A stretch of DNA of 44,120 bases, taken from IMG/VR virus record IMGVR_UViG_3300025706_000009, one strand, 5' to 3'. Positions within the stretch are counted from its first letter, which is position 1; each line of letters opens with the position of its first letter. This stretch comes from a virus. The position numbers and the translations under genes are program-made. Under the pieces are notes generated by a model, which was given only the letters and a program-made list of their open reading frames with translations, was not told the origin of the DNA and ran no database searches. Below are positions 2,513-30,448 of this stretch, piece by piece.

Positions 2513-2773
2513 ATGGAACTTACCACCACAACCGAAGTCCCCGCAGCCGTAGCGATATTCTACGACCGTGAGCTTCTGGCAAATGCAAGGGCAAAGCTCT
2601 TCCATGAGAAGTTCGCGCAGACCCGGAACCTGCCTTCCAAGTCAGGCGACACCATCAAGTTCCGCAGGTATGGCACCCTGACCACGGCCACCACGCCGCT
2701 CACCGAGGGCGTGACCCCTGCAGGGCAGAAGCTCTCCAAGACCGACCTGCTCGCCAAGGTCAGCCAGTACGGT
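2513..2773 (+). CDS. Major capsid protein, exon 1 (87 codons)
   Basis: RBS gaaGGAGGa precedes ATG 2513. The sequence ...FYDRELL...GDTIKFRRYG...LTEGVTPAG...LLAKVSQYG looks like the N-terminus of an HK97-fold (N4 gp56-like) capsid protein. Capsid-like sequence stops after QYG (codon ggt 2771-2773). The remaining 17 codons before the stop are intron sequence. Confidence 0.8.
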
Positions 2774-3449
2774 AGCCATAAAATTGCCGTACGCAAATCC
2801 TTTCTGATTTACGGGAACGCCTAAACAAGGAGATGACAATCCATGCAAGGTAACCCGAGGGAAGCGGTTCTCATCTCATATCTGGCCGGGATAATCGACG
2901 GCGAGGGCACAATCCGCATTAATCGTTGCGCTGGAGATAAAACGCTAAGGCAGCTCAAGCGGAAGAATCCTATTCATGCCGGACAAATATCGGTCGGGAT
3001 GACCTCCAAGGATGTCTGTGATCTTTTGCAGTCCGTTCTTGGTGGATCAGTGAGAGAAGAACGCGTTCCTGATGGTCGCAAGGTTATATATCGGTGGGCA
3101 ATCACGTCCAGGCCAATGGTAATCGCGGCCCTCAATAAGCTCATGCCTTATCTGATTGTGAAGAAGGAACAGGCGCAAGCTGTTTTGGAGTTTTGCGAAT
3201 ACTGGCCGGACAAGAATGTTCACCTTGCTTTGACGCCACAGGAACTACAGCGGCGTGAGGATGCGTTCTGGAAGGTTCGCAAGCTCAATGCCGTTGGAGC
3301 ACCCGCAACGACTGAGCGAAAGGACATTCGTGAGAATGAAGCGACAGTCTGAACTTATGAGAAATCATAAGAGGGGAATCGAAGCGTTCCCCCGCCTCTT
3401 TACTGAGGTCAGTAAGCCGACAGGTGACGCGGCTGAAAGTAACAGGATG
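2774..3449 (+). mobile_element. Group I intron (about 676 nt) carrying a homing endonuclease ORF
   Basis: P1: gtacggt (2767-2773) pairs with gccgtac (2786-2792), with a U-G wobble exactly at the 5' splice site. P10: exon 2 gatttt (3450-3455) pairs with the immediately adjacent aaaatt (2780-2785). The intron ends in G3449. Splicing joins frame 2 to frame 0 and restores ...SQYG|DFVYVTDW.... Confidence 0.8.
2843..3352 (+). CDS. LAGLIDADG homing endonuclease, single-motif type (169 aa)
   Basis: The motif YLAGIIDGEGT lies near the N-terminus. The size fits homodimeric I-CreI-like enzymes. RBS aaGGAGatgacaatccATG. The ORF sits inside the intervening sequence and is AT-richer than the capsid exons. 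Confidence 0.85.
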   Translation: MQGNPREAVLISYLAGIIDGEGTIRINRCAGDKTLRQLKRKNPIHAGQISVGMTSKDVCDLLQSVLGGSVREERVPDGRKVIYRWAITSRPMVIAALNKLMPYLIVKKEQAQAVLEFCEYWPDKNVHLALTPQELQRREDAFWKVRKLNAVGAPATTERKDIRENEATV

Positions 3450-4130
3450 GATTTTGTCTACGTCACCGATTGGGTCAACATGACGGTTGAGGACCCCGTT
3501 CTCACCGTGGCCCAGGAGGAGCTGGGCGACCAGGAAGGCCGCACCCGTGACGAGCTCGTCAGGGACATCCTGATTGCATCGCTCACCGCGACCCATGCGG
3601 CAGGCGGGTCCAATGGCAACACTCCGACCGAGATCACCAAGGCCGACATCGACGACCTGGTCAAGACGCTCCTGGGGGCAGACGCTGAGTTCTTCGCTCC
3701 GAAGATCACCGCTTCCACAGGGGTAGGCACGTCACCCATCAGGGACGCCTTCTGGGGCATCGCACACACCGACCTCATCGACGACCTCGAGGATGTGAGC
3801 AACTTCAAGAGCACCTCGGAGTATCCGCGCCAGGAAGGCGTGGTCGACGGCGAGTGGGGCTCGACCGGCAATGTCCGCTGGCTCGTCAGCTCGGTAGCGG
3901 CGAAGAACGAAACGCCGAACCCGGACGAGTACGACCTGCCGATCATCGGCAAGAACGCCTATGCCGTGACCGACCTCGAGAGCGGCAGCGAGAGCATCGT
4001 GAAGGCGTTCGGCAGCGGCGGCACTTCCGACCCGTTGAACCAGAGGGCCACGGCAGGCTGGAAGATGGCATTCGTAGCGCGGATCCTGAATGACAACTTC
4101 ATTCAGCTTCTGCAGGTCACCCACAGCTAA
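3450..4130 (+). CDS. Major capsid protein, exon 2 (226 codons plus stop)
   Basis: DFVYVTDWVNMTVEDPVLTVAQEELGDQEGRTRDELVRDIL... continues the capsid-like sequence. The upstream part of track ORF 3255..4130 (3255-3449) overlaps the HEG in another frame and is intron. Confidence 0.8.
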   Translation, partial: DFVYVTDWVNMTVEDPVLTVAQEELGDQEGRTRDELVRDILIASLTATHAAGGSNGNTPTEITKADIDDLVKTLLGADAEFFAPKITASTGVGTSPIRDAFWGIAHTDLIDDLEDVSNFKSTSEYPRQEGVVDGEWGSTGNVRWLVSSVAAKNETPNPDEYDLPIIGKNAYAVTDLESGSESIVKAFGSGGTSDPLNQRATAGWKMAFVARILNDNFIQLLQVTHS

Positions 4131-5654: not shown

Positions 5655-6302
5655 ATGTACGAGTGGGACCTGACAGCCATACGGAGCAAGGTTCGATCCA
5701 TCACGGGCTACCTGTCCACCGGACAGATGGCAGATGGAACCATCGACGGCCACATCAACCAGGCCTACTGCAACGAGCTCCCGCGGCTGTTGGGTCACAC
5801 TCAGTTTCATGCATGGTTCACGTTCGACACCGTTGCCAGCACCGGAGAGTACACCATCGACGACCTGGCCAGCGACGACGGGGCGAACATCATCGCCTTC
5901 GACGGCAGCTATATCACCGTCGACGATGCAGACGCCTCGGTCTACTACGACAGGGCGGCATTCTTCGCCATCTGGCCGGAGGGTGAAACCTATACCGAAG
6001 GCACACCTACCGACATTCTCATCGAGGGCAGGAAGATCTGGCTCCGAACAATCCCGGACGACGCATACGAGGTCAAGATCCCCGTCACCCGGAAGTGCCC
6101 GGAGGCCCTCGAAGAAGCAACAGACAAGCCGCTCGACCCATCATGGGGGCCTCTTATCGCCTTCATAGCGTCAGAGATCATCCTCCTGGAGAAGGGCAGG
6201 GATGTTTCCGCGGCAGAGGCAGGCAAGCGGTATTACCTATCACTGGCCGGATACGATGCTGCTCACCGGCTCAGTGGCCAGCGAGCGGCTCCGAGGTGGT
6301 GA
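5655..6302 (+). CDS. Putative virion structural protein, possibly a head-tail adaptor (215 aa)
   Basis: Size and position resemble adaptor genes of podoviruses. The N-terminus ...IRSKVRSITGY... is typical of such proteins. Weak, by-eye call. Confidence 0.35.
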   Translation: MYEWDLTAIRSKVRSITGYLSTGQMADGTIDGHINQAYCNELPRLLGHTQFHAWFTFDTVASTGEYTIDDLASDDGANIIAFDGSYITVDDADASVYYDRAAFFAIWPEGETYTEGTPTDILIEGRKIWLRTIPDDAYEVKIPVTRKCPEALEEATDKPLDPSWGPLIAFIASEIILLEKGRDVSAAEAGKRYYLSLAGYDAAHRLSGQRAAPRW

Positions 6303-6868
6303 TGATGACAAAGCGATTCCTCCAGGCTTTCAAGGACATCATAGGGCTCGAAGGCGGGTATGGAGCAGATCCGGACGATAAAGGCAACTGGACAGGCGGG
6401 GAGATCGGCAAGGGCGAGCTCAAGGGCACGAAGTACGGCCTTTCCGCTGCCAGGTATCCAAGCCTTGACATCAAGAGCCTCACCTTACAGGACGCCGAGG
6501 CCATCTACTTTATGGATTGGTGGGCTCCGCTTAAGCTTGATGACATCACTGACGAGCAGATCGCGTTTGAGCTGTTCGACACATCGGTCAACTGTGGAGC
6601 AGCTCCGGCCATCCGGATCGCCCAGCGAGCCCTTCGGTTCCTCGGGGAGCATATCGACCCAGACGGAAAGATGGGGCCTGACACCCTTGGAAAGATCAAC
6701 AAATGGTGCATCAAGGACGCCATGAGCCTGCATAAGGCTCTCAATGGTTATCAGTTCATGAAATACGCGGCCATCGTGGAAGCAGCCCTACAGGATCCGA
6801 AGAACCCAAGCGAGAAGTACGGTCATGGATGGCTGAAGAGAATCCAATACTACAGGAGGGCCGCCTGA
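6302..6868 (+). CDS. Endolysin: GH108-type muramidase N-domain plus a PG_binding_3-like C-domain (188 aa)
   Basis: Motifs GLEGGYGADPDDKGNWTGG...KYGLSA...AEAIYFMDWW...FDTSVNCG...DGKMGPDTLGKIN match the GH108/PF09374 pattern from memory. The ATG overlaps the upstream stop. Confidence 0.8.
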   Translation: MMTKRFLQAFKDIIGLEGGYGADPDDKGNWTGGEIGKGELKGTKYGLSAARYPSLDIKSLTLQDAEAIYFMDWWAPLKLDDITDEQIAFELFDTSVNCGAAPAIRIAQRALRFLGEHIDPDGKMGPDTLGKINKWCIKDAMSLHKALNGYQFMKYAAIVEAALQDPKNPSEKYGHGWLKRIQYYRRAA

Positions 6869-12786: not shown

Positions 12787-13548
12787 ATGAAGCGAATCCT
12801 CATACTGACAATCCTGCTCATGTCCTCGCTGGCATGGGCAGGGAGTACGACGGTGGTGGTGGGGCAGGGGGGCGGGGCTCCAGTTGCTTTCTGCTCTGGA
12901 TCTGTACTGTTCTGTGAAGACTTCGAGGGAACAGATACTTCCTGGGATGTAGCCGAGTCACTTGACTGTGATGGGTATGATTCAGATGGAGTTTACTGCG
13001 ACGATGACACATCGGTTTCTATGGAGGGGTCGGAGGTTCTCGGAGTCCGGGGGCCTAATACTGACTATATACAAGAGGCCCTATCTTCCTCCGATCAGAC
13101 AGAATTGTATTTTGAAGTGTGGTGGAGAGTTAATAACGTAAGCGGAGTGAGATCAGGTCCAGGGTGTTATACATCGGGGGGATATCAGTCAATATCATTG
13201 GATCAGTCTTGGGGGACTCTTAGAGCCATTATAAAAGGTGGGACTGCTGGGCTTAATACATCCAAAACAGATTTTGCTGCAAATACCAAATATCATATAG
13301 GAGTCTACTGGAAGATTGAGACTGCGGCAGGAAACAATGATGGAATTGTGAGGGTTTGGATGAATACTGATGGAGGTGAATTTGATGCAGCGGATTTGAT
13401 TTTGAATAATACCTCAGTTGATACTGGAGCCGAAAGCGAAGGATGGCAAGCTGATGTTTGGAGAATACCGGGTCCGGCGGCAGGATATGTGAGCTACACA
13501 GATAACAATAGAGCTGTTGCAGGAGCACCGTCATGGGCATACGAATAA
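12787..13548 (+). CDS. Secreted-type protein, possibly a ConA/LamG-like carbohydrate-binding fold (253 aa)
   Basis: Sec-type signal MKRILILTILLMSSLAWAGS. The segment YHIGVYWKIETAAGNNDGIVRVWMNTDG resembles lectin/glucanase-fold proteins. Low-GC DNA. The fold call is weak. Confidence 0.55.
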   Translation: MKRILILTILLMSSLAWAGSTTVVVGQGGGAPVAFCSGSVLFCEDFEGTDTSWDVAESLDCDGYDSDGVYCDDDTSVSMEGSEVLGVRGPNTDYIQEALSSSDQTELYFEVWWRVNNVSGVRSGPGCYTSGGYQSISLDQSWGTLRAIIKGGTAGLNTSKTDFAANTKYHIGVYWKIETAAGNNDGIVRVWMNTDGGEFDAADLILNNTSVDTGAESEGWQADVWRIPGPAAGYVSYTDNNRAVAGAPSWAYE

Positions 13549-15029
13549 TAAGGATCATACTGCTTTCTATTCTTATTCCTTCTGTTCTTTGGGCTCTTCC
13601 CGCCTTTCCTGGGGCTGAGGGCATGGGGGCATCAGCCACCGGGGGAAGAGGCGGCACGGTCTATGTGGTGGATACGCTCTCCGATAATCCAGATGATGGG
13701 GTTACGTTCAGGGAGGCATGTGTTGCATCCGGGGCAAGGATCATTGTTTTCTCGGTGTCTGGGACCATTAATTTACTGACTACCCTGACGGTCAGTAACG
13801 ATAATCTTACCATTGCGGGTCAGACTTCACCCGGGGGCATCTGCATCTCGGGTGCATCATTCATTCTATCCCAGGTGGAAAATGTAATCATAACCCACAT
13901 GCGATTCCGCAAAGGCTCTCATATTGGAGATGCTGACACGGCTCGGTCTATTGAAATTAACGGAACACAGAACAATACTGATCCAGCGCATAATATTATC
14001 ATAGACCATTGCTCCTTTTCTTGGGGGCCGGACACCAATGTCAGCATCAACTACACGGTCTATGATGTCACACTCTCATGGTGCATGATCACCTGGGGGC
14101 TGCAAGATCCGCACAGTGAGTCTAATCACGGTCTCGGAACACAGATATGGGGAAGATACACACAGACTTATAATACAGTTCCCTATGGCATTACTATGCA
14201 CCATTGTTTCCATGGATATAATTATTACAGATTGCCCGAGCTCACCTTTGCGGGGTTTATGGACCTTACTAATAATGTATCCTACTATTGGCATTCGACT
14301 TACGCGCCGTATTTGCAGCCCATGAATGACGGTGGTACGAACAAGCTCGGCTATGCCAATATGAAACACTGTTATGCTGATGTGAGGTCGGGCGAGGGCA
14401 ATGACCAGGACTCCTCACGATCCGCAATTCTTTATCCATCGTCGGTGACAGCCTATCAGGCAATTTACATGACCGGATGTCTTTCGGGGGCCAGGACATC
14501 ACAGGGTGCCTCTCAATGGGATGTGGGGCAATACGACTCAGGTGGTGGATGGGGATTGAACCTCATCTCTACGAATTGGCAGAGCGGGACCGAGTTCGAA
14601 GTACGCGATATCCCGGTCACGGCTACTACCATGAGCAGCGAATACGCCGCCACCGTTGTGGCTGGATGTGGGGCCAATAGGATCTCATCGACCACCGAGG
14701 TCACTAGGGACGCCGTTGACGCATCAGCCCTATCCAATTATATTGCAGGAACCGGAGCTTATGAGGCTGATGTGACATATCCCGATGACTGGCCCACGTT
14801 CTCCACTTCCAGCGACAACCCCACCGACTCGGACAGCGATGGTATGTGGGACACCACTGAAACAGCCGTGTTCGGAGATCTGACCAAGGACGGGACCGCC
14901 GACACGGACGGGGATGGATACTATGATTTTGAGGAGTACTTATTCTACCTCGGTGGCTATCAGGAGTCCGAATCCCCCTCCACGCCATCTATCCGCTCTG
15001 GCGGCATACGCAGTGGAGGTATCAGATGA
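13533..15029 (+). CDS. Pectate lyase-like (PL1, right-handed beta-helix) polysaccharide depolymerase with an N-terminal signal-like helix and a C-terminal Ca-binding-type Asp repeat (498 aa)
   Basis: FPGAEGMGASATGGRGGTVYVVDTLSD...IIVFSVSGTINL...LTIAGQTSPGGICISG...VIITHMRFRKG matches the PL1 N-terminal signature from memory. The C-terminus reads DSDSDGMWD...DTDGDGYYDFEEY. Confidence 0.8.
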   Translation: MGIRIIRIILLSILIPSVLWALPAFPGAEGMGASATGGRGGTVYVVDTLSDNPDDGVTFREACVASGARIIVFSVSGTINLLTTLTVSNDNLTIAGQTSPGGICISGASFILSQVENVIITHMRFRKGSHIGDADTARSIEINGTQNNTDPAHNIIIDHCSFSWGPDTNVSINYTVYDVTLSWCMITWGLQDPHSESNHGLGTQIWGRYTQTYNTVPYGITMHHCFHGYNYYRLPELTFAGFMDLTNNVSYYWHSTYAPYLQPMNDGGTNKLGYANMKHCYADVRSGEGNDQDSSRSAILYPSSVTAYQAIYMTGCLSGARTSQGASQWDVGQYDSGGGWGLNLISTNWQSGTEFEVRDIPVTATTMSSEYAATVVAGCGANRISSTTEVTRDAVDASALSNYIAGTGAYEADVTYPDDWPTFSTSSDNPTDSDSDGMWDTTETAVFGDLTKDGTADTDGDGYYDFEEYLFYLGGYQESESPSTPSIRSGGIRSGGIR

Positions 15030-25650: not shown

Positions 25651-27978
25651 TTACTTTTCACCACCTGTTTTCTGTGACAGGTCAGATACAGGCTCCATCT
25701 CCTCGAATAACGTACCCTGGTTGAGATCGGACTTCGCCTTTCTGAGATTGCGACATGATTCGTTGAAGTATGCCTCTTTCAATTCGATGCCTATAAACAT
25801 CCTGTTCAGTTGCAATGAAACGTAACCCTCTGACCCGATTCCAGCGAACGGAGAGAAGACAACATCCCCAGGATTGCTCCACAGGTTAAGGCACCTTTCG
25901 ATGGTGTCAAGTTGCAGCGGGCAGATATGGCGCTCGTCCTGGTGCTCCCGTGCGGCTCGTTCATTTAATGTGCGCGTTTGCCGAATATCAAACCATACCG
26001 GGCTGGCGTATCTTTGCCATACTTCATGGCTGTATTTATTCACCCTGGCATCATCTGACTTCTCGGCGGTAGGCTCTGGTCGCTCTCCCACATAGTATTC
26101 AAATCCTCTTCCGTGCGAAATGGGCTCATAATTATCACCGGGCTTTCTCATCGTTACCACATAGTCAGGAAAACCATTCCCGCACCTTGATGAATCCTTG
26201 CTGATCTGCTTGTGGGCCAACGTCAAGACCTTTGTTCTGACGGCCTGAAGAAGAGGGTCTTTCCAGATACAAACCTCGGAATGGTATATGAAACCATGCT
26301 TTTCAAACATCCTGATTATATCCCCCCTGAAGTCTCGCATGCCGATCACTCCATCCCTTGATATGGTCATTGGCAGGTTCATGCAGTGGATGGATACAAG
26401 TCTTCCTGGCATAAGAACCCGCTTGATTTCACCGATCAGGTAATCAAAGTGGGCGGCAAACTCTTTATCATTCTTGCAATTTCCCATGTCGCGGTGACTG
26501 CTGGTGTAAGTGAACAGTTGGGCAAAAGGAGGGCTGAATATTGAATACCCAACAGAATCATCATGTATCGTTTTAGTGACTTCTACGCAATCCCCTAGAT
26601 ACATGGTCCACCCATCACCATGCTCGGTGTGCTCGCGGTAGACATCCCTAAATCTATGAACGCTTTTCATTTCCTCGGCCGTAACGGTTGCCATGTGCTG
26701 CACCATATTCATGCTCATTTCCTCAGCAGCCTTCTCCTTACGGCGAAGGTTTGATATTACACACCCGTCCAGCTCCGATTCGATGACGTGGACATTCACT
26801 GTGTTCGGCTGGCCGAATCTCCAGCATCGACGAACAGCCTGGTAATACTGCTCGTAAGAATCTGACAGGCCAACGAAGATCATATTGTGGCAGTTCTGCC
26901 AGTTCATGCCGTACCCGGATATTGATGGCTTGGTTACGAGAACCCGTATATCTCCATTGGCAAAACCGATCATGGACGCCTCTTTATGTTCGGGGGCATC
27001 GCTACCCTTGATCTGTACCGAATCGGGAAGACGCTTTGCCAGGGCGTCATTCTCCGCGTTCAGTTCGCACCATACGAGCCATTGCTCATCGCTCCCGTTG
27101 ATCGTATTGGCTATTTCCTCTACTCGCTGCTCAAGCGTAGACTTACGGGCGGCTCTGCGCTCGGAAAGTGTCAGTTTCTCCACGGCGAACAAATGCCCAA
27201 CCTGTGATGCGTCGGCTTCTATGGTGTGTTCATGTACTTCCAATGAGGGCAGCACGAACCCGTCATCAGAATAGCCAAGGTCCGACGGTTTCTTGAGCAT
27301 AACAGCCCATTGGCTCATCCATTCCCAGAACCGTTCTTGGGCATGGCCCTTGAGCCTCCATGTTCCGGTGTCACTCGCATCATTCACAAAGAACATGGCG
27401 AGCATTTCTGCACGGGTCATGGCCCCAAGGAATTCAGCATGGTTGCCGAGCTCAATGTAGTCGTTCGGGGCTGGCGTGGCAGTACATGCCAGTTTGAATT
27501 GAGTACCCGTGAATGATTCTATGATCTGCGTTCGGACCTTCCCGGTATATGATTTCAGGATGCTCGATTCATCGAGAACGATACCAGAAAAAACCGACGT
27601 GTCAAACTTGTGCAGCATCTCATAATTGGTAATATTAATGCCGTTAATGATATCTGTGTTCTCCCTCGCGAGAGAAACGACTATCCCAAACTTCTTGCCC
27701 TCCCTGATGGTCTGTCTTGAAACCGCCAGCGGAGCCAATATCAAGATAGGCTTATCGGTTCTTGTATGAACATGCCGCGCCCATTCAAGCTGTATCGGTG
27801 TTTTGCCAAGGCCGCAGTCTGCAAATACCGCGAGCCTGCCGCGACGCAATGCATACCGCACAATGTCTTTCTGAAACCCGAACAGCATAGGGTTCATTTC
27901 ATCCAGCGGAATGTCAAATCCCATTGGCTGAATATTAAACTGCTTATCCTCTAAAAACTTCTGATAGTCCGTGCTCAT
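25651..27978 (-). CDS. SNF2-family helicase fused to an N6/N4 DNA methyltransferase (775 aa)
   Basis: Helicase motifs ADCGLGKT, VLDESS, CTATPAPN, QAVRRCWRFGQ. The C-terminal MTase has SPPF (motif IV) before FSPFAGIGSEG (motif I), the beta-class order of N6_N4_Mtase. Low-GC DNA. Confidence 0.85.
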   Translation of the reverse strand: MSTDYQKFLEDKQFNIQPMGFDIPLDEMNPMLFGFQKDIVRYALRRGRLAVFADCGLGKTPIQLEWARHVHTRTDKPILILAPLAVSRQTIREGKKFGIVVSLARENTDIINGINITNYEMLHKFDTSVFSGIVLDESSILKSYTGKVRTQIIESFTGTQFKLACTATPAPNDYIELGNHAEFLGAMTRAEMLAMFFVNDASDTGTWRLKGHAQERFWEWMSQWAVMLKKPSDLGYSDDGFVLPSLEVHEHTIEADASQVGHLFAVEKLTLSERRAARKSTLEQRVEEIANTINGSDEQWLVWCELNAENDALAKRLPDSVQIKGSDAPEHKEASMIGFANGDIRVLVTKPSISGYGMNWQNCHNMIFVGLSDSYEQYYQAVRRCWRFGQPNTVNVHVIESELDGCVISNLRRKEKAAEEMSMNMVQHMATVTAEEMKSVHRFRDVYREHTEHGDGWTMYLGDCVEVTKTIHDDSVGYSIFSPPFAQLFTYTSSHRDMGNCKNDKEFAAHFDYLIGEIKRVLMPGRLVSIHCMNLPMTISRDGVIGMRDFRGDIIRMFEKHGFIYHSEVCIWKDPLLQAVRTKVLTLAHKQISKDSSRCGNGFPDYVVTMRKPGDNYEPISHGRGFEYYVGERPEPTAEKSDDARVNKYSHEVWQRYASPVWFDIRQTRTLNERAAREHQDERHICPLQLDTIERCLNLWSNPGDVVFSPFAGIGSEGYVSLQLNRMFIGIELKEAYFNESCRNLRKAKSDLNQGTLFEEMEPVSDLSQKTGGEK

Positions 27979-28379: not shown

Positions 28380-29546
28380 TCATTTCTCCTCCATCCTTTT
28401 CATTGGCACGACTTCGCCTTTTTTCCTCTCCCGTATCTCCCTGACAACCTCGTAGGCGTCCGTGTTCTCAACCTGGCAGTAGCGGTCGAACGCCTTGTTG
28501 GTAAGCCCTGACGCCTTCAATGCCCGGTCTGCCCCTAGCATTTTGGCCGTTTCCGTGGCCGTGGTGTGCTTGGTGCCGGGGTAGAGTGGGACGCCTGAGA
28601 TGCCTAGCGCCTTACACGCCTTGTTCCACCAGTCGGACAGGTGACGGGGGCCGAAGACGAGGTTGCGCCTGACGGTTCCACGGACCTTGCCGTGATGCCG
28701 AAAGAATGGCATGTCAGGCATGGCGGGATACTCTCTCTGTAATCCTTTCCAGGCGGCCACATGATCTTGATGTAGGTGGATATGCTTGAATCTGTTTTTA
28801 AGTTTAGTGGGATTACATAAGTGTATCCACTCCCCATCGAAATCTCCTTCCCTTATCCTTCTCAGGTCATCGGGCCTCAGTGCCGTGTAGGTTGCAAGCA
28901 TGTCGCAGCCAAGCCACACCTTCGGCGGGGCGATCTCCTTGAGCTTATTCAGCACCTTCTCCTGTAACTCCCATGTCAGGATCTTGCGGTATCCCAACTC
29001 GTACTTGATGTCAGGGAACGCCGGAAACTCTGCCAGGGTGATCACATCCCCCCTGGACAGGCACCACCGCCAGAAGTTCCGAAGCTGCGCCATGTGGTTG
29101 TGGCGGGTCTTCTGGGATATGCCGGGTATGCCCCTGAGATAGTCGGCTATCATCCCACCCGTGATGTCCCGCAGGTTGATTCTGCCGAAGTGGGCAGATG
29201 CCGCATTGATCATGAATGACACCTTGCCGATGGATCGTAGCCCGTCCTGCCGCTTGACCTCCAGGTACTTCGGTGCAAGGGCGGCGAATGAGTTTGGGCG
29301 CAGACTCCGATAATCGTCAGGGTTGAAGTCCCGCCCACGCTCGGCCTTCTCATGCCTGAGATGGTTAAGCTCCTGCTCGGCCTCGGTCAGATTAACGAAT
29401 GTCTTGTAGATGCCCCCCGGAAACTTCACTATATACGTCCTGGCGCGATTCGTTGGGTGGTCCGGGCAGGAACACCACCTACCGTTGTACCTCATCACCT
29501 TGCCGCAAATAGAGCACTTTTCTCTGGTATATATCCCCCCATCCAT
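28380..29546 (-). CDS. Tyrosine-recombinase (phage integrase)-like protein with an N-terminal Cys4 zinc ribbon (388 aa)
   Basis: Strong RBS GGGGAGGAGGTGtagtc precedes ATG 29546; the track start 29612 has none. It has ALRPDDLRRI (Arg I), KLKNRFKHIHL, ...GTKHTTATE... and ...FDRYCQ (Tyr). Several catalytic positions look substituted (see findings). Confidence 0.65.
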   Translation of the reverse strand: MDGGIYTREKCSICGKVMRYNGRWCSCPDHPTNRARTYIVKFPGGIYKTFVNLTEAEQELNHLRHEKAERGRDFNPDDYRSLRPNSFAALAPKYLEVKRQDGLRSIGKVSFMINAASAHFGRINLRDITGGMIADYLRGIPGISQKTRHNHMAQLRNFWRWCLSRGDVITLAEFPAFPDIKYELGYRKILTWELQEKVLNKLKEIAPPKVWLGCDMLATYTALRPDDLRRIREGDFDGEWIHLCNPTKLKNRFKHIHLHQDHVAAWKGLQREYPAMPDMPFFRHHGKVRGTVRRNLVFGPRHLSDWWNKACKALGISGVPLYPGTKHTTATETAKMLGADRALKASGLTNKAFDRYCQVENTDAYEVVREIRERKKGEVVPMKRMEEK

Positions 29547-29608
29547 GACTACACCTCCTCCCCGAACTCGGGGCCTGGAAGTGTACTCCATCTGGGCGGG
29601 GGTTGTCA

Positions 29609-30448
29609 TCATATCTCGCTAAGTCCTGTTAATATCAGGCTGTTCTTCTCGTCCTCGACATCGAAGAGCCTCATCTGGTTGTCGGTGAAGTCTACATCCG
29701 CAAGGGGAATGCAGGAAAAATGTAGATACGCCTTACGTTTCTGGCGCGTGTCTCTCCTTATCGCATCATCTACTAGACAAGCATCACTAAATTCCTCAAG
29801 GGTGAGCAGTCTCCAATCGTGGTCCGTATGGTAGGGGCATCCAATACAGGATGATTTCGGCGGGACATGGTTGGGGAAGTTTCTGTCTATCCACTGGATG
29901 CACTGCTGTCGGTTCATCTGTATCCATTCGATGAGGGGAAATCTCATGTTGGACATACGATCAGGGCGATATGTTTTGGTCCTTCTCAGTTCGTCCATAG
30001 AAATTCCAATCCACTGTTCAACGGCCCCCTGTGGCGCTCTCTGGCCCTTGTGAAGACCGAGGAGTTCGCGCAATTTTCTTTTTATGGGTTGAATCTTGAA
30101 ATCATAGGTGCATTCCCGTCTACCAATGGATTTTCCATTACATCCTACGGAATGAGTTGGCATTTTGACGAACCCATAACTATCTATCGCGCTCTCCCTG
30201 AGATTCATCCCGTTTTTTGTTCCCTCCACCCGCACAATCGGTGTCCCATGCTCCTTCCCCATCTGCTCCAGCCATTCAAGGTGCTGGTACGTCTTCATGG
30301 TTTCCCATCCCGTATCTGCAAAGATTGCAAGGTGGGGCTTGGGGAGAAGTCCCTTTATGGACATGAGAAAAATAGCGGTAGACTGCACACCAGCACCGAG
30401 AGAAAGAATGCGGAGCTTGTATAACTCTGTGGCGGCGGGGGTTGTCAT
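29609..30448 (-). CDS. PAPS reductase / PP-loop ATP-pyrophosphatase family protein, DndC/IbrA-like (279 aa)
   Basis: N-terminal LSLGAGVQSTAIFLM is a PP-loop-like motif, with ADTGWE following. The C-terminus has CIGCPYH. The size is typical of phage PAPS-reductase-like proteins. Confidence 0.7.
   Translation of the reverse strand: MTTPAATELYKLRILSLGAGVQSTAIFLMSIKGLLPKPHLAIFADTGWETMKTYQHLEWLEQMGKEHGTPIVRVEGTKNGMNLRESAIDSYGFVKMPTHSVGCNGKSIGRRECTYDFKIQPIKRKLRELLGLHKGQRAPQGAVEQWIGISMDELRRTKTYRPDRMSNMRFPLIEWIQMNRQQCIQWIDRNFPNHVPPKSSCIGCPYHTDHDWRLLTLEEFSDACLVDDAIRRDTRQKRKAYLHFSCIPLADVDFTDNQMRLFDVEDEKNSLILTGLSEI

Follow-up and report, generated by a model that had tools for sequence, protein, structure and literature searches.

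Introns in the capsid genes of phages

The major capsid gene of mycobacteriophage LittleE contains a homing endonuclease gene within an intron of ~0.8 kb, and splicing of this intron was demonstrated by RT-PCR (reverse transcription PCR) and N-terminal sequencing; the capsid intron of the lactococcal phage Tuc2009 is cited in the same study (PMC3706429). Among the crAss-like phages of the Delta and Zeta groups, major capsid protein (MCP) genes are split by group I introns with endonuclease domains that include LAGLIDADG (PMC7886860). Here we describe a comparable locus in the IMG/VR virus record IMGVR_UViG_3300025706_000009, a stretch of 44,120 nucleotides (the window; coordinates below are those of the window), in which the major capsid gene is interrupted at positions 2774–3449 by what is very probably a mobile group I intron that carries a LAGLIDADG endonuclease, with splicing and homing predicted from its anatomy and family membership.

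The LittleE intron resembles that of the window in having an endonuclease gene within a capsid intron, an exon 1 that ends in U and an intron that ends in G (PMC3706429). It differs in that its endonuclease is of the HNH type and is transcribed from the opposite strand, its capsid family and insertion site are unrelated, and its ribozyme structure was not resolved. The crAss-like cases share with the window a metagenomic origin and an MCP gene split by endonuclease-bearing group I introns (PMC7886860), but belong to another phage order and capsid family and were identified by protein domains only, whereas for the window we have both a resolved RNA structure and an allele that lacks the intron. 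As capsid-gene introns are thus already established in LittleE and the crAss-like phages, the window intron adds to a known type: it is well supported, but it is a familiar kind of selfish element. What is beyond routine is the size of the intron family missed by Rfam, its fidelity to one capsid motif, and the overlap of open reading frame (ORF) and ribozyme at both ends of the ORF.

The interrupted capsid gene

The ORF at 2513–2824 is capsid-like up to ...LLAKVSQYG (2773), and then runs through 17 unrelated codons to a stop at 2822–2824. Capsid-like translation picks up at 3450 in another frame and ends at 4130, and a 169-aa LAGLIDADG ORF lies in between, just as in a preliminary description made from the letters of this DNA alone. 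The parts of the locus are as follows.

2513–2773, + strand: major capsid protein exon 1, 87 codons, ending ...SQYG; colinear with the intron-less allele L263
2774–3449, + strand: predicted group I intron, 676 nt, marked by a drop in GC content, by covariation and by a terminal G that is present in 27/27 relatives
2843–3352, + strand: ORF of the putative LAGLIDADG homing endonuclease, 169 aa, with the single motif YLAGIIDGEG(T)
3450–4130, + strand: major capsid protein exon 2, 226 codons plus stop; its first six bases, GAUUUU, form P10

Joining 2513–2773 to 3450–4130 gives 942 nt and restores a single frame of 313 aa, the length that had been predicted, with the peptide ...VSQYGDFVYVTDWVNMTVEDPVLTVAQEELGDQEGR across the junction. 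The joined protein matches the Pfam family Phage_capsid_4 (PF25209) with 29.1 bits, above the cut-off of 27 bits, over residues 5–235. The match crosses the junction at 87/88, the contiguity proposed earlier as a check, and neither fragment scores against this family when taken separately. When 50,697 phage records were searched by tblastn with the joined protein, 32 gave matches, and 31 of the 32 align in one piece with 80% or more of the query; among them are proteins annotated as major head proteins in the Bacillus phages Pascal, Page and Pony and in Paenibacillus phages. The junction residues SQYG|DF align without a gap with SQYGGY and AQYGDY of the homologues. By this match, the joined product would be an HK97-fold major capsid protein of the Phage_capsid_4 family.

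An uninterrupted 313-aa allele is present in the viral contig L263 and in L270, a contig from a metagenome-assembled genome (MAG). The L263 allele is 90% identical to the joined window capsid in protein and 81% in DNA, and it reads ...AGCCAGTACGGT|TCATACGTCC... exactly at the point where the window is interrupted (sequence around the junction, ...AGCCAGTACGGTTCATACGTCC...). As judged from these alleles, the insert is a presence/absence polymorphism at a single phosphodiester bond. Among the capsid homologues compared, none aligns to the read-through translations of the window (2774–2824 or 3255–3449), a result that the preliminary description had named as one that would count against an intron. 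GC content is 0.49–0.53 inside 2775–3449 and 0.58–0.67 in the exon flanks, a drop typical of an inserted element.

Two tblastn matches in two pieces (H11 and H12) were considered as further split capsids and rejected, as they are in-frame protein insertions and not introns. In the gut-phage capsid homologues L001 and L002 (MT836218, MT837590), an in-frame insertion of about 60–70 aa near the C-terminal third (2270–2450) is likewise a protein insertion domain and not an intron.

Predicted splice sites, P1 and P10

The P1 with a U-G pair at the splice site, the P10 of six bases on each side and the terminal G that the preliminary description pointed to are all there in the sequence.

2767–2792, + strand: P1, exon strand GUACGGU (2767–2773) paired with the guide GCCGUAC (2786–2792), with U2773.G2786 at the 5′ splice site
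3435–3449, + strand: conserved 3′ tail GAAAGUAACAGGAUG, seen in the alignment and ending in the terminal G (3449)

In P10, AAAAUU (2780–2785, part of the guide) pairs with GAUUUU at the start of exon 2 (3450–3455). The P1 guide is conserved among relatives; within the QYG site P1 stays constant, as the QYG codons dictate how exon 1 ends. Where exon 1 ends GAUUGGU, in a second capsid clade, the guide is GCCAAUC, which is full compensation of P1. P10 varies with compensation, the combinations including ATCT/GGAT, AGTT/GGCT, ATGT/ACAT, AATC/GATT, AACT/AGTT and ACCT/GGGT; over 12 distinct guide/exon combinations 42/48 positions are paired, compared with 30.5 by permutation, and 0/10,000 permutations reach that value.

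Two further features of the splice sites deserve mention. Six related loci (L027, L029, L030, L031, L151 and L154) form a clade with the same intron and endonuclease, an extra P2 and P2.1, and the guide GCCAAUC; there exon 1 would have to end one base past the U.G pair (GAUUGGU+U/G) for the reading frame to be restored, a departure from the usual group I rule. At the other end, the last three bases of 19/27 related introns are AUG, UUG or GUG and are in frame with exon 2, which makes NUG commoner there than chance would predict; this may reflect the context of P9.0 or of the terminal G, or occasional internal initiation.

The predicted ribozyme core

We solved the core structure by comparison with ORF-less relatives. 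Folding and comparison together yield P1, P3–P9, P9.1–P9.3 and P10, with covariation in the core helices, so the group I assignment and the search for P3–P9 suggested in the preliminary description are both borne out. Apart from P1 and the 3′ tail, the elements of the core are these.

2798–2804, + strand: 5′ strand of P3, UCCUUUC, paired with 3318–3324
2812–2822, + strand: 5′ strand of P4, CGGG (2812–2815), J4/5 AA and 5′ strand of P5, GCCU (2819–2822); layout as in ORF-less relatives, and permutation tests
2823–2847, + strand: L5 loop, which holds the ribosome-binding site AAGGAG (2827–2832) and the AUG start codon (2843–2845), as read from the sequence
2848–2865, + strand: 3′ strand of P5, AGGU, J5/4 AA, 3′ strand of P4, CCCG (2854–2857), A, 5′ strand of P6, GGG (2859–2861), and AAGC
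3248–3296, + strand: P6a/P6b hairpin, an extension of P6 within the ORF, CAGCGGC(GU)(GAG)...(CUC)A(AU)GCCGUUG enclosing UGCGUUCU-GGAA-GGUUCGCA
3302–3309, + strand: 3′ strand of P6, CCC (3302–3304), and J6/7 GCAAC; supported by covariation of the P6 triplet
3310–3324, + strand: 5′ strand of P7, GACUG (3310–3314), J7/3 AGC and 3′ strand of P3, GAAAGGA (3318–3324); P7 100% paired, with two covarying pairs
3325–3349, + strand: P8, CAUUC-GUGA-GAAUG (3325–3338), J8/7 AAGCGA and 3′ strand of P7, CAGUC (3345–3349); all five P8 pairs covary
3354–3371, + strand: P9 with a GAAA loop, 96.8% paired, 6/7 pairs covarying
3373–3392, 3395–3408 and 3415–3434, + strand: P9.1, P9.2 and P9.3, from RNAalifold and the single-sequence fold

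The 3′ strand of P3 sits between the 5′ strand of P7 and P8, so the P3/P7 pseudoknot topology is present. At the putative guanosine site A3308 pairs with U3350, C3309 is bulged and G3310 pairs with C3349, which would be the usual geometry of such a site; in alignment A2 (see below) these columns show little or no variation. U3350, the partner of A3308 across the bulged C3309, is also the first base of the UGA stop codon of the ORF (3350–3352).

Covariation was measured on helix strands taken by sequence anchors from 27 distinct introns, the majority of which occupy the QYG|D site, pairing each strand with its own partner or with the partners of others in 10,000 permutations. P3 (7 bp) forms 6.89 pairs with its own partner and 3.90 with others' partners, P6 (3 bp) 3.00 and 1.83, and P7 (5 bp) 5.00 and 4.46; the count in each case is 0/10,000 permutations. 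There are 20 different 5′ strands of P3, with two to six pair types per position. P6 occurs in seven triplet combinations (GGG/CCC, UGG/CCA, GGC/GCC, GCC/GGC, UGC/GCA, AGC/GCU and CCC/GGG), and the closest relative, L004, whose endonuclease is 82% identical, has UGG/CCA where the window has GGG/CCC. P7 varies as GACUG/CAGUC, GACUA/UAGUC and GACCA/UGGUC. The signal in P4 (82/88 pairs, compared with 77.3 by permutation; 17/10,000 permutations reach the observed value) comes mainly from CGGG/CCCG versus CUGG/UCAG, and P5 has 51/66 pairs compared with 46.1 (0/10,000).

In A2, a MAFFT alignment of the 3′ halves of the introns that covers P6a/b, P7, P8 and P9, 84.3% of cells are paired, compared with 70.4 ± 0.7 in 500 shuffles and 32–46% (maximum 45.7%) when partners were slid. 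Both sides have changed in 33/44 pairs (22.3 in shuffles), the covariation score is 0.460 (0.196 in shuffles), and 0/500 shuffles reach any of these measures. Inside the ORF, 14/20 pairs of the P6a/P6b hairpin have changed on both sides. With the body of the ORF deleted, the minimum-energy fold of the single sequence recovers P1, P4, P5, P6a/b, P7, P8 and P9–P9.3.

Some alternative assignments were discarded along the way. The hairpin at 3248–3296 is not P4/P5, since ORF-less relatives show that the 5′ element is P4/J4/5/P5 and the hairpin an extension of P6; a mini-helix GC....GC before J6/7, proposed by RNAalifold, was dropped in favor of the long-range P6. For the 5′ element ACGGGAACGCCUAAAC, no covariation partner was found in the 3′ tail (P9.1 CCCCCG), in GCNNNNGC before J6/7, or at fixed offsets from P7. 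The window intron has no P2 and no P7.1/P7.2.

The putative endonuclease

The endonuclease ORF has 110 homologues at E ≤ 1e-3. A profile of 32 family members matches PDB entries for I-MsoI (1m5x; E = 3.6e-11) and I-CreI (1u0d; E = 7.4e-11), as well as I-CvuI and other LAGLIDADG enzymes, over residues 10–130, and 24/32 family members match Pfam LAGLIDADG_1 (PF00961). In the family alignment (A1) D19, G20, E21 and G22 are invariant, D19 being the acidic residue of the motif. By homology, the 169-aa product with its one motif is a LAGLIDADG endonuclease of the homodimeric I-CreI/I-MsoI type; those enzymes are of similar length (about 165 aa) and have one LAGLIDADG motif with an acidic residue. 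They differ in being encoded in rRNA introns of algal chloroplasts, their identity to the window ORF is low, and the C-terminal ~35 residues of the window enzyme are constrained by the ribozyme. A candidate target is the L263 junction, AGCCAGTACGGT|TCATACGTCC.

Overlap of the ORF and the predicted ribozyme

The intron is made up of ~294 nt of ribozyme and ~382 nt of ORF body, the latter an insertion in the P6 loop. Only 69 nt + 97 nt = 166 nt lie outside the ORF, the figure that had been estimated. The preliminary description concluded that the core must overlap the 3′ end of the ORF, which it does, but this was incomplete, as the start of the ORF is overlapped too and the ORF lies in the P6 loop; the compactness that it called unusual is indeed so, the tight overlap of enzyme gene and ribozyme being the only unusual trait of the element. 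At the 5′ end the start codon is in L5 and codons 2–7 encode P5′, P4′ and P6 (2848–2865 are codons 2–8, Q-G-N-P-R-E-A, an N-terminal motif conserved across the whole endonuclease family), while at the 3′ end the last ~35 codons encode P6a/b, P6′, P7, P3′, P8 and P7′. In several relatives the AUG follows directly after CUAAAC.

This dual coding is visible as selection, in that third codon positions are more conserved near either end of the ORF than in its middle. Across 23 endonuclease genes aligned by codon, the commonest third-position base has a mean frequency of 0.80 over the first eight codons, 0.50 over the 117 codons in the middle and 0.72 over the final 36. In the C-terminal tail (ATT-xxxxx-REGEA), the residues that vary coincide exactly with the P3′ strand, which changes in step with P3 ~500 nt upstream. 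The two-ended overlap is thus compact dual coding under measurable selection. Since a ribosome on the endonuclease ORF must melt P4–P6 and P3–P8, any one RNA molecule can probably either be translated into the endonuclease or be spliced, but not both.

Within the middle of the ORF, GAAGAACGCGUUCCU at 3056–3070 (codons E-E-R-V-P) is conserved in nucleotide sequence, including third positions, among relatives only 45–55% identical in protein. Its GCGUUCC (3063–3069) is complementary to GGGAACGC of P4/J4/5 (2813–2820), and the same 7-mer occurs again in the 3′ strand of P9.1 (3384–3390). From these matches, GAAGAACGCGUUCCU may serve for alternative pairing or for regulation.

The intron family and its nearest relatives

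Of 80 viral loci that encode relatives of the ORF, about 25 are distinct and have it between capsid halves precisely at QYG|, in inserts of 630–853 nt; the version of the window itself is present in six contigs, which come from different samples. Around three of the relatives, public gene calls show a capsid N-fragment (~90 aa) and a Phage_capsid_4 C-fragment (~245 aa) on either side of a ~170-aa endonuclease, with SU10-type portal and adaptor genes as neighbors. A scan for the J8/7-P7′ motif found >100 viral loci, most without an ORF, and >60 ORF-less relatives have the same layout, P3 - UGAUUGA - P4 - AA - P5 hairpin - CAA - P4′ - P6 - (G/U)(C/G)AAC, followed by P7 GACUA - P3′ - P8 - AAGCGAUAGUC - P9 - P9.1...

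Several other loci illustrate the range of these elements. In another capsid clade (L052–L055, L059, L064, L065, L161, L164, L171, L186, L224 and L243), the P6 loop of related introns is occupied by an antisense gene for a distantly related LAGLIDADG protein (28–35% identity), with the reverse complement of its start codon just upstream of P6′/J6/7. The intron-plus-endonuclease family also extends beyond capsid genes: L047 has a member (1501–2090) in the gene that directly precedes its capsid gene, which is itself uninterrupted, and L039, L041 and L046 seem to be arranged alike. L223 has two group I introns ~200 nt apart in one gene (6019–6272 and ~6390–6600), the first of which passes the Rfam model RF00028 (95.2 bits) while the second belongs to the family of the window and is missed by Rfam.

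Among cultured phages, blastn matches to the window intron are limited to ORF-less introns in terL of Streptococcus thermophilus phages of the genus Brussowvirus (e.g. P4761, KY705258), over 37 nt of J8/7-P7′-P9 at 89% identity, in 63 Streptococcus phage records, almost all of S. thermophilus phages. The 3′ tail GAUAACAAAUAAUG is similar; the terL introns differ in host gene (terminase), in having no ORF and in extra sequence between P7 and P3′. The P4761 record (L272, 1166–1472) lists TerL as two proteins together with a 44-aa 'hypothetical protein', and an unannotated ORF-less group I intron lies in the gap.

The td intron of phage T4 has the ORF of I-TevI in its P6 loop, and the window and td are alike in an endonuclease ORF looped out of P6 and in the interruption of a late or essential phage gene at a conserved site. 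They are unlike in host gene (thymidylate synthase in td, capsid here), in endonuclease (GIY-YIG in td, LAGLIDADG here), in that the window has neither P2 nor P7.1/P7.2, and in that both ends of the window ORF are embedded in core helices. J3/4-P4-J4/5 (..AAACGGGGAAC..), J6/7-P7 (AACGACU), J8/7-P7′ (..AUAGUCUG) and the 3′ end (..AACAUAAUG) appear very similar to those of td. The td-like subgroup IA2 is marked by P7.1/P7.2 between P7 and P3′ as well as by its junction sequences; P2 and P7.1/P7.2 are absent here, and the subgroup is left unassigned.

A broader reading, which we put forward as a doubtful though real possibility, is that the window intron is one of a large clade of group I introns in phages, unrecognized by curated models and specialized on QYG|D, which exists in ORF-less, sense-ORF and antisense LAGLIDADG-ORF forms, with splicing switched off by translation in the sense-ORF lineage. 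In that lineage GNPR(Q/E)A would encode P5′/P4′/P6, and the tail KLNAVGAAATT..REGEAxV would encode P6′/P7/P3′/P8/P7′. The mid-ORF GAAGAACGCGUUCCU, complementary to P4/J4/5, could be part of this splicing switch. If true, the yield of the phage's most abundant protein would be tied to expression of the endonuclease.

Proposed mechanism and alternative explanations

If the element is a mobile intron, the late transcript would fold as a P1–P10 ribozyme, and free guanosine, bound at G3310-C3349 of P7, would attack after U2773. The freed end of exon 1 would then attack after G3449, joining ...SQYG to DFVYV... and restoring the 313-aa HK97-type capsid protein. The endonuclease, a homodimer by homology, would cut intron-less capsid alleles such as that of L263 at or near QYG|D, and repair from an intron-bearing genome would copy the intron into the cut allele.

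This reading is built on observed anatomy, conservation, covariation, an intron-less allele and protein families, but several points weigh against it. With Infernal, the intron has no match to Rfam at the gathering score: RF00028 matches only with 16.7 bits (E = 0.14) at 3140–3371, where the gathering score is 50 bits. The Infernal comparison proposed in the preliminary description was therefore negative at that threshold, although the P7/P3′/P8/P7′/P9 columns of the sub-threshold match are correct, agreeing with the structure established by covariation; the P2 and P3 that Rfam places inside the ORF at 3140–3200 were rejected, as the true 5′ strand of P3 is 2798–2804. RF00028 also misses ORF-less members of the family, so the low score is due to the model and not to the sequence. 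By itself the window ORF is weak in Pfam (LAGLIDADG_3, E = 0.15), its family assignment coming through the profile of relatives; P5 is short (3–4 bp) and the register of its covariation test is crude; the P6b of the window has two U.U mismatches; and the last three bases of the intron, AUG (3447–3449), are in frame with exon 2, which makes separate translation of exon 2 conceivable.

That AUG, and the 19 relatives with AUG, UUG or GUG in its place, would suit a capsid split without splicing, in which the endonuclease gene is free-standing and an N-fragment ending ...SHKIAVRKSFLIYGNA co-assembles with a C-fragment starting MDFVYV. We give this hardly any credence. The remaining 8/27 relatives end in AAG, ACG, CCG, CUG, GGG or UAG, so the start codon is not conserved, and no usable ribosome-binding site lies at proper spacing before 3447–3449. 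Nor does a free-standing gene need a complete ribozyme, which is nevertheless kept, with compensatory changes in strands that the ORF separates by 450 nt and a guide sequence that tracks both exon ends. The element might instead be a former group I intron that no longer splices, in a capsid copy that is dead because it belongs to a defective prophage or a non-viable assembly variant; the window encodes an integrase and so could be a prophage, and the mismatches in P6b would fit such decay. We regard this as very improbable, as the core helices, the guanosine-site pair, the terminal G, P1 and P10 are all intact, the ORF keeps both its full length and its motif, and identical copies occur in six contigs from different samples. 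Moreover, the P6 of L004 differs from that of the window by a compensated change (UGG/CCA for GGG/CCC), which indicates ongoing selection.

A milder variant would keep the intron and its splicing but have them depend on a protein, either the LAGLIDADG product acting as a maturase or a host factor. LAGLIDADG proteins serve as maturases in organelles, the core here is largely coding, and P6 and P5 are minimal at 3 bp and 3–4 bp. ORF-less relatives with an equally small P5 and P6 are nevertheless common and have no protein partner in the intron, and we think such dependence unlikely.

Phage context and significance

The window also encodes a portal fragment, a long tail-fiber-like protein and a large terminase, in addition to the following genes.

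13533–15029, + strand: pectate-lyase-like tail protein
25651–27978, − strand: helicase fused to a DNA methyltransferase domain
28380–29612, − strand: integrase

It is a temperate tailed phage or prophage of ~44 kb, and the integrase, the helicase/methyltransferase and the pectate-lyase-like protein together point to a temperate lifestyle and a polysaccharide-coated host as target. For the host, genome contigs were scanned, which gave just two short MAG contigs (binned as Deltaproteobacteria and Acidobacteriota) and was set aside as unreliable, and a promoter and terminator scan gave nothing above background.

Gene callers split the locus into three ORFs, a 103-aa fragment, a hypothetical protein and a capsid piece of 291 aa or ~245 aa, and the same mis-annotation occurs in the public gene calls of related contigs and in the TerL of S. 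thermophilus phages, which is given as two proteins. A covariance model built from the window's intron family would recover hundreds of phage introns that Rfam misses. Endonuclease-mediated interference between co-infecting phages has been shown for PhiPA3 (PMC11620839), and the window and its intron-less, 90%-identical relative are a natural pair for questions of homing and of interference during co-infection. For the phage itself, the capsid protein, its most heavily expressed late product, would depend on RNA splicing.

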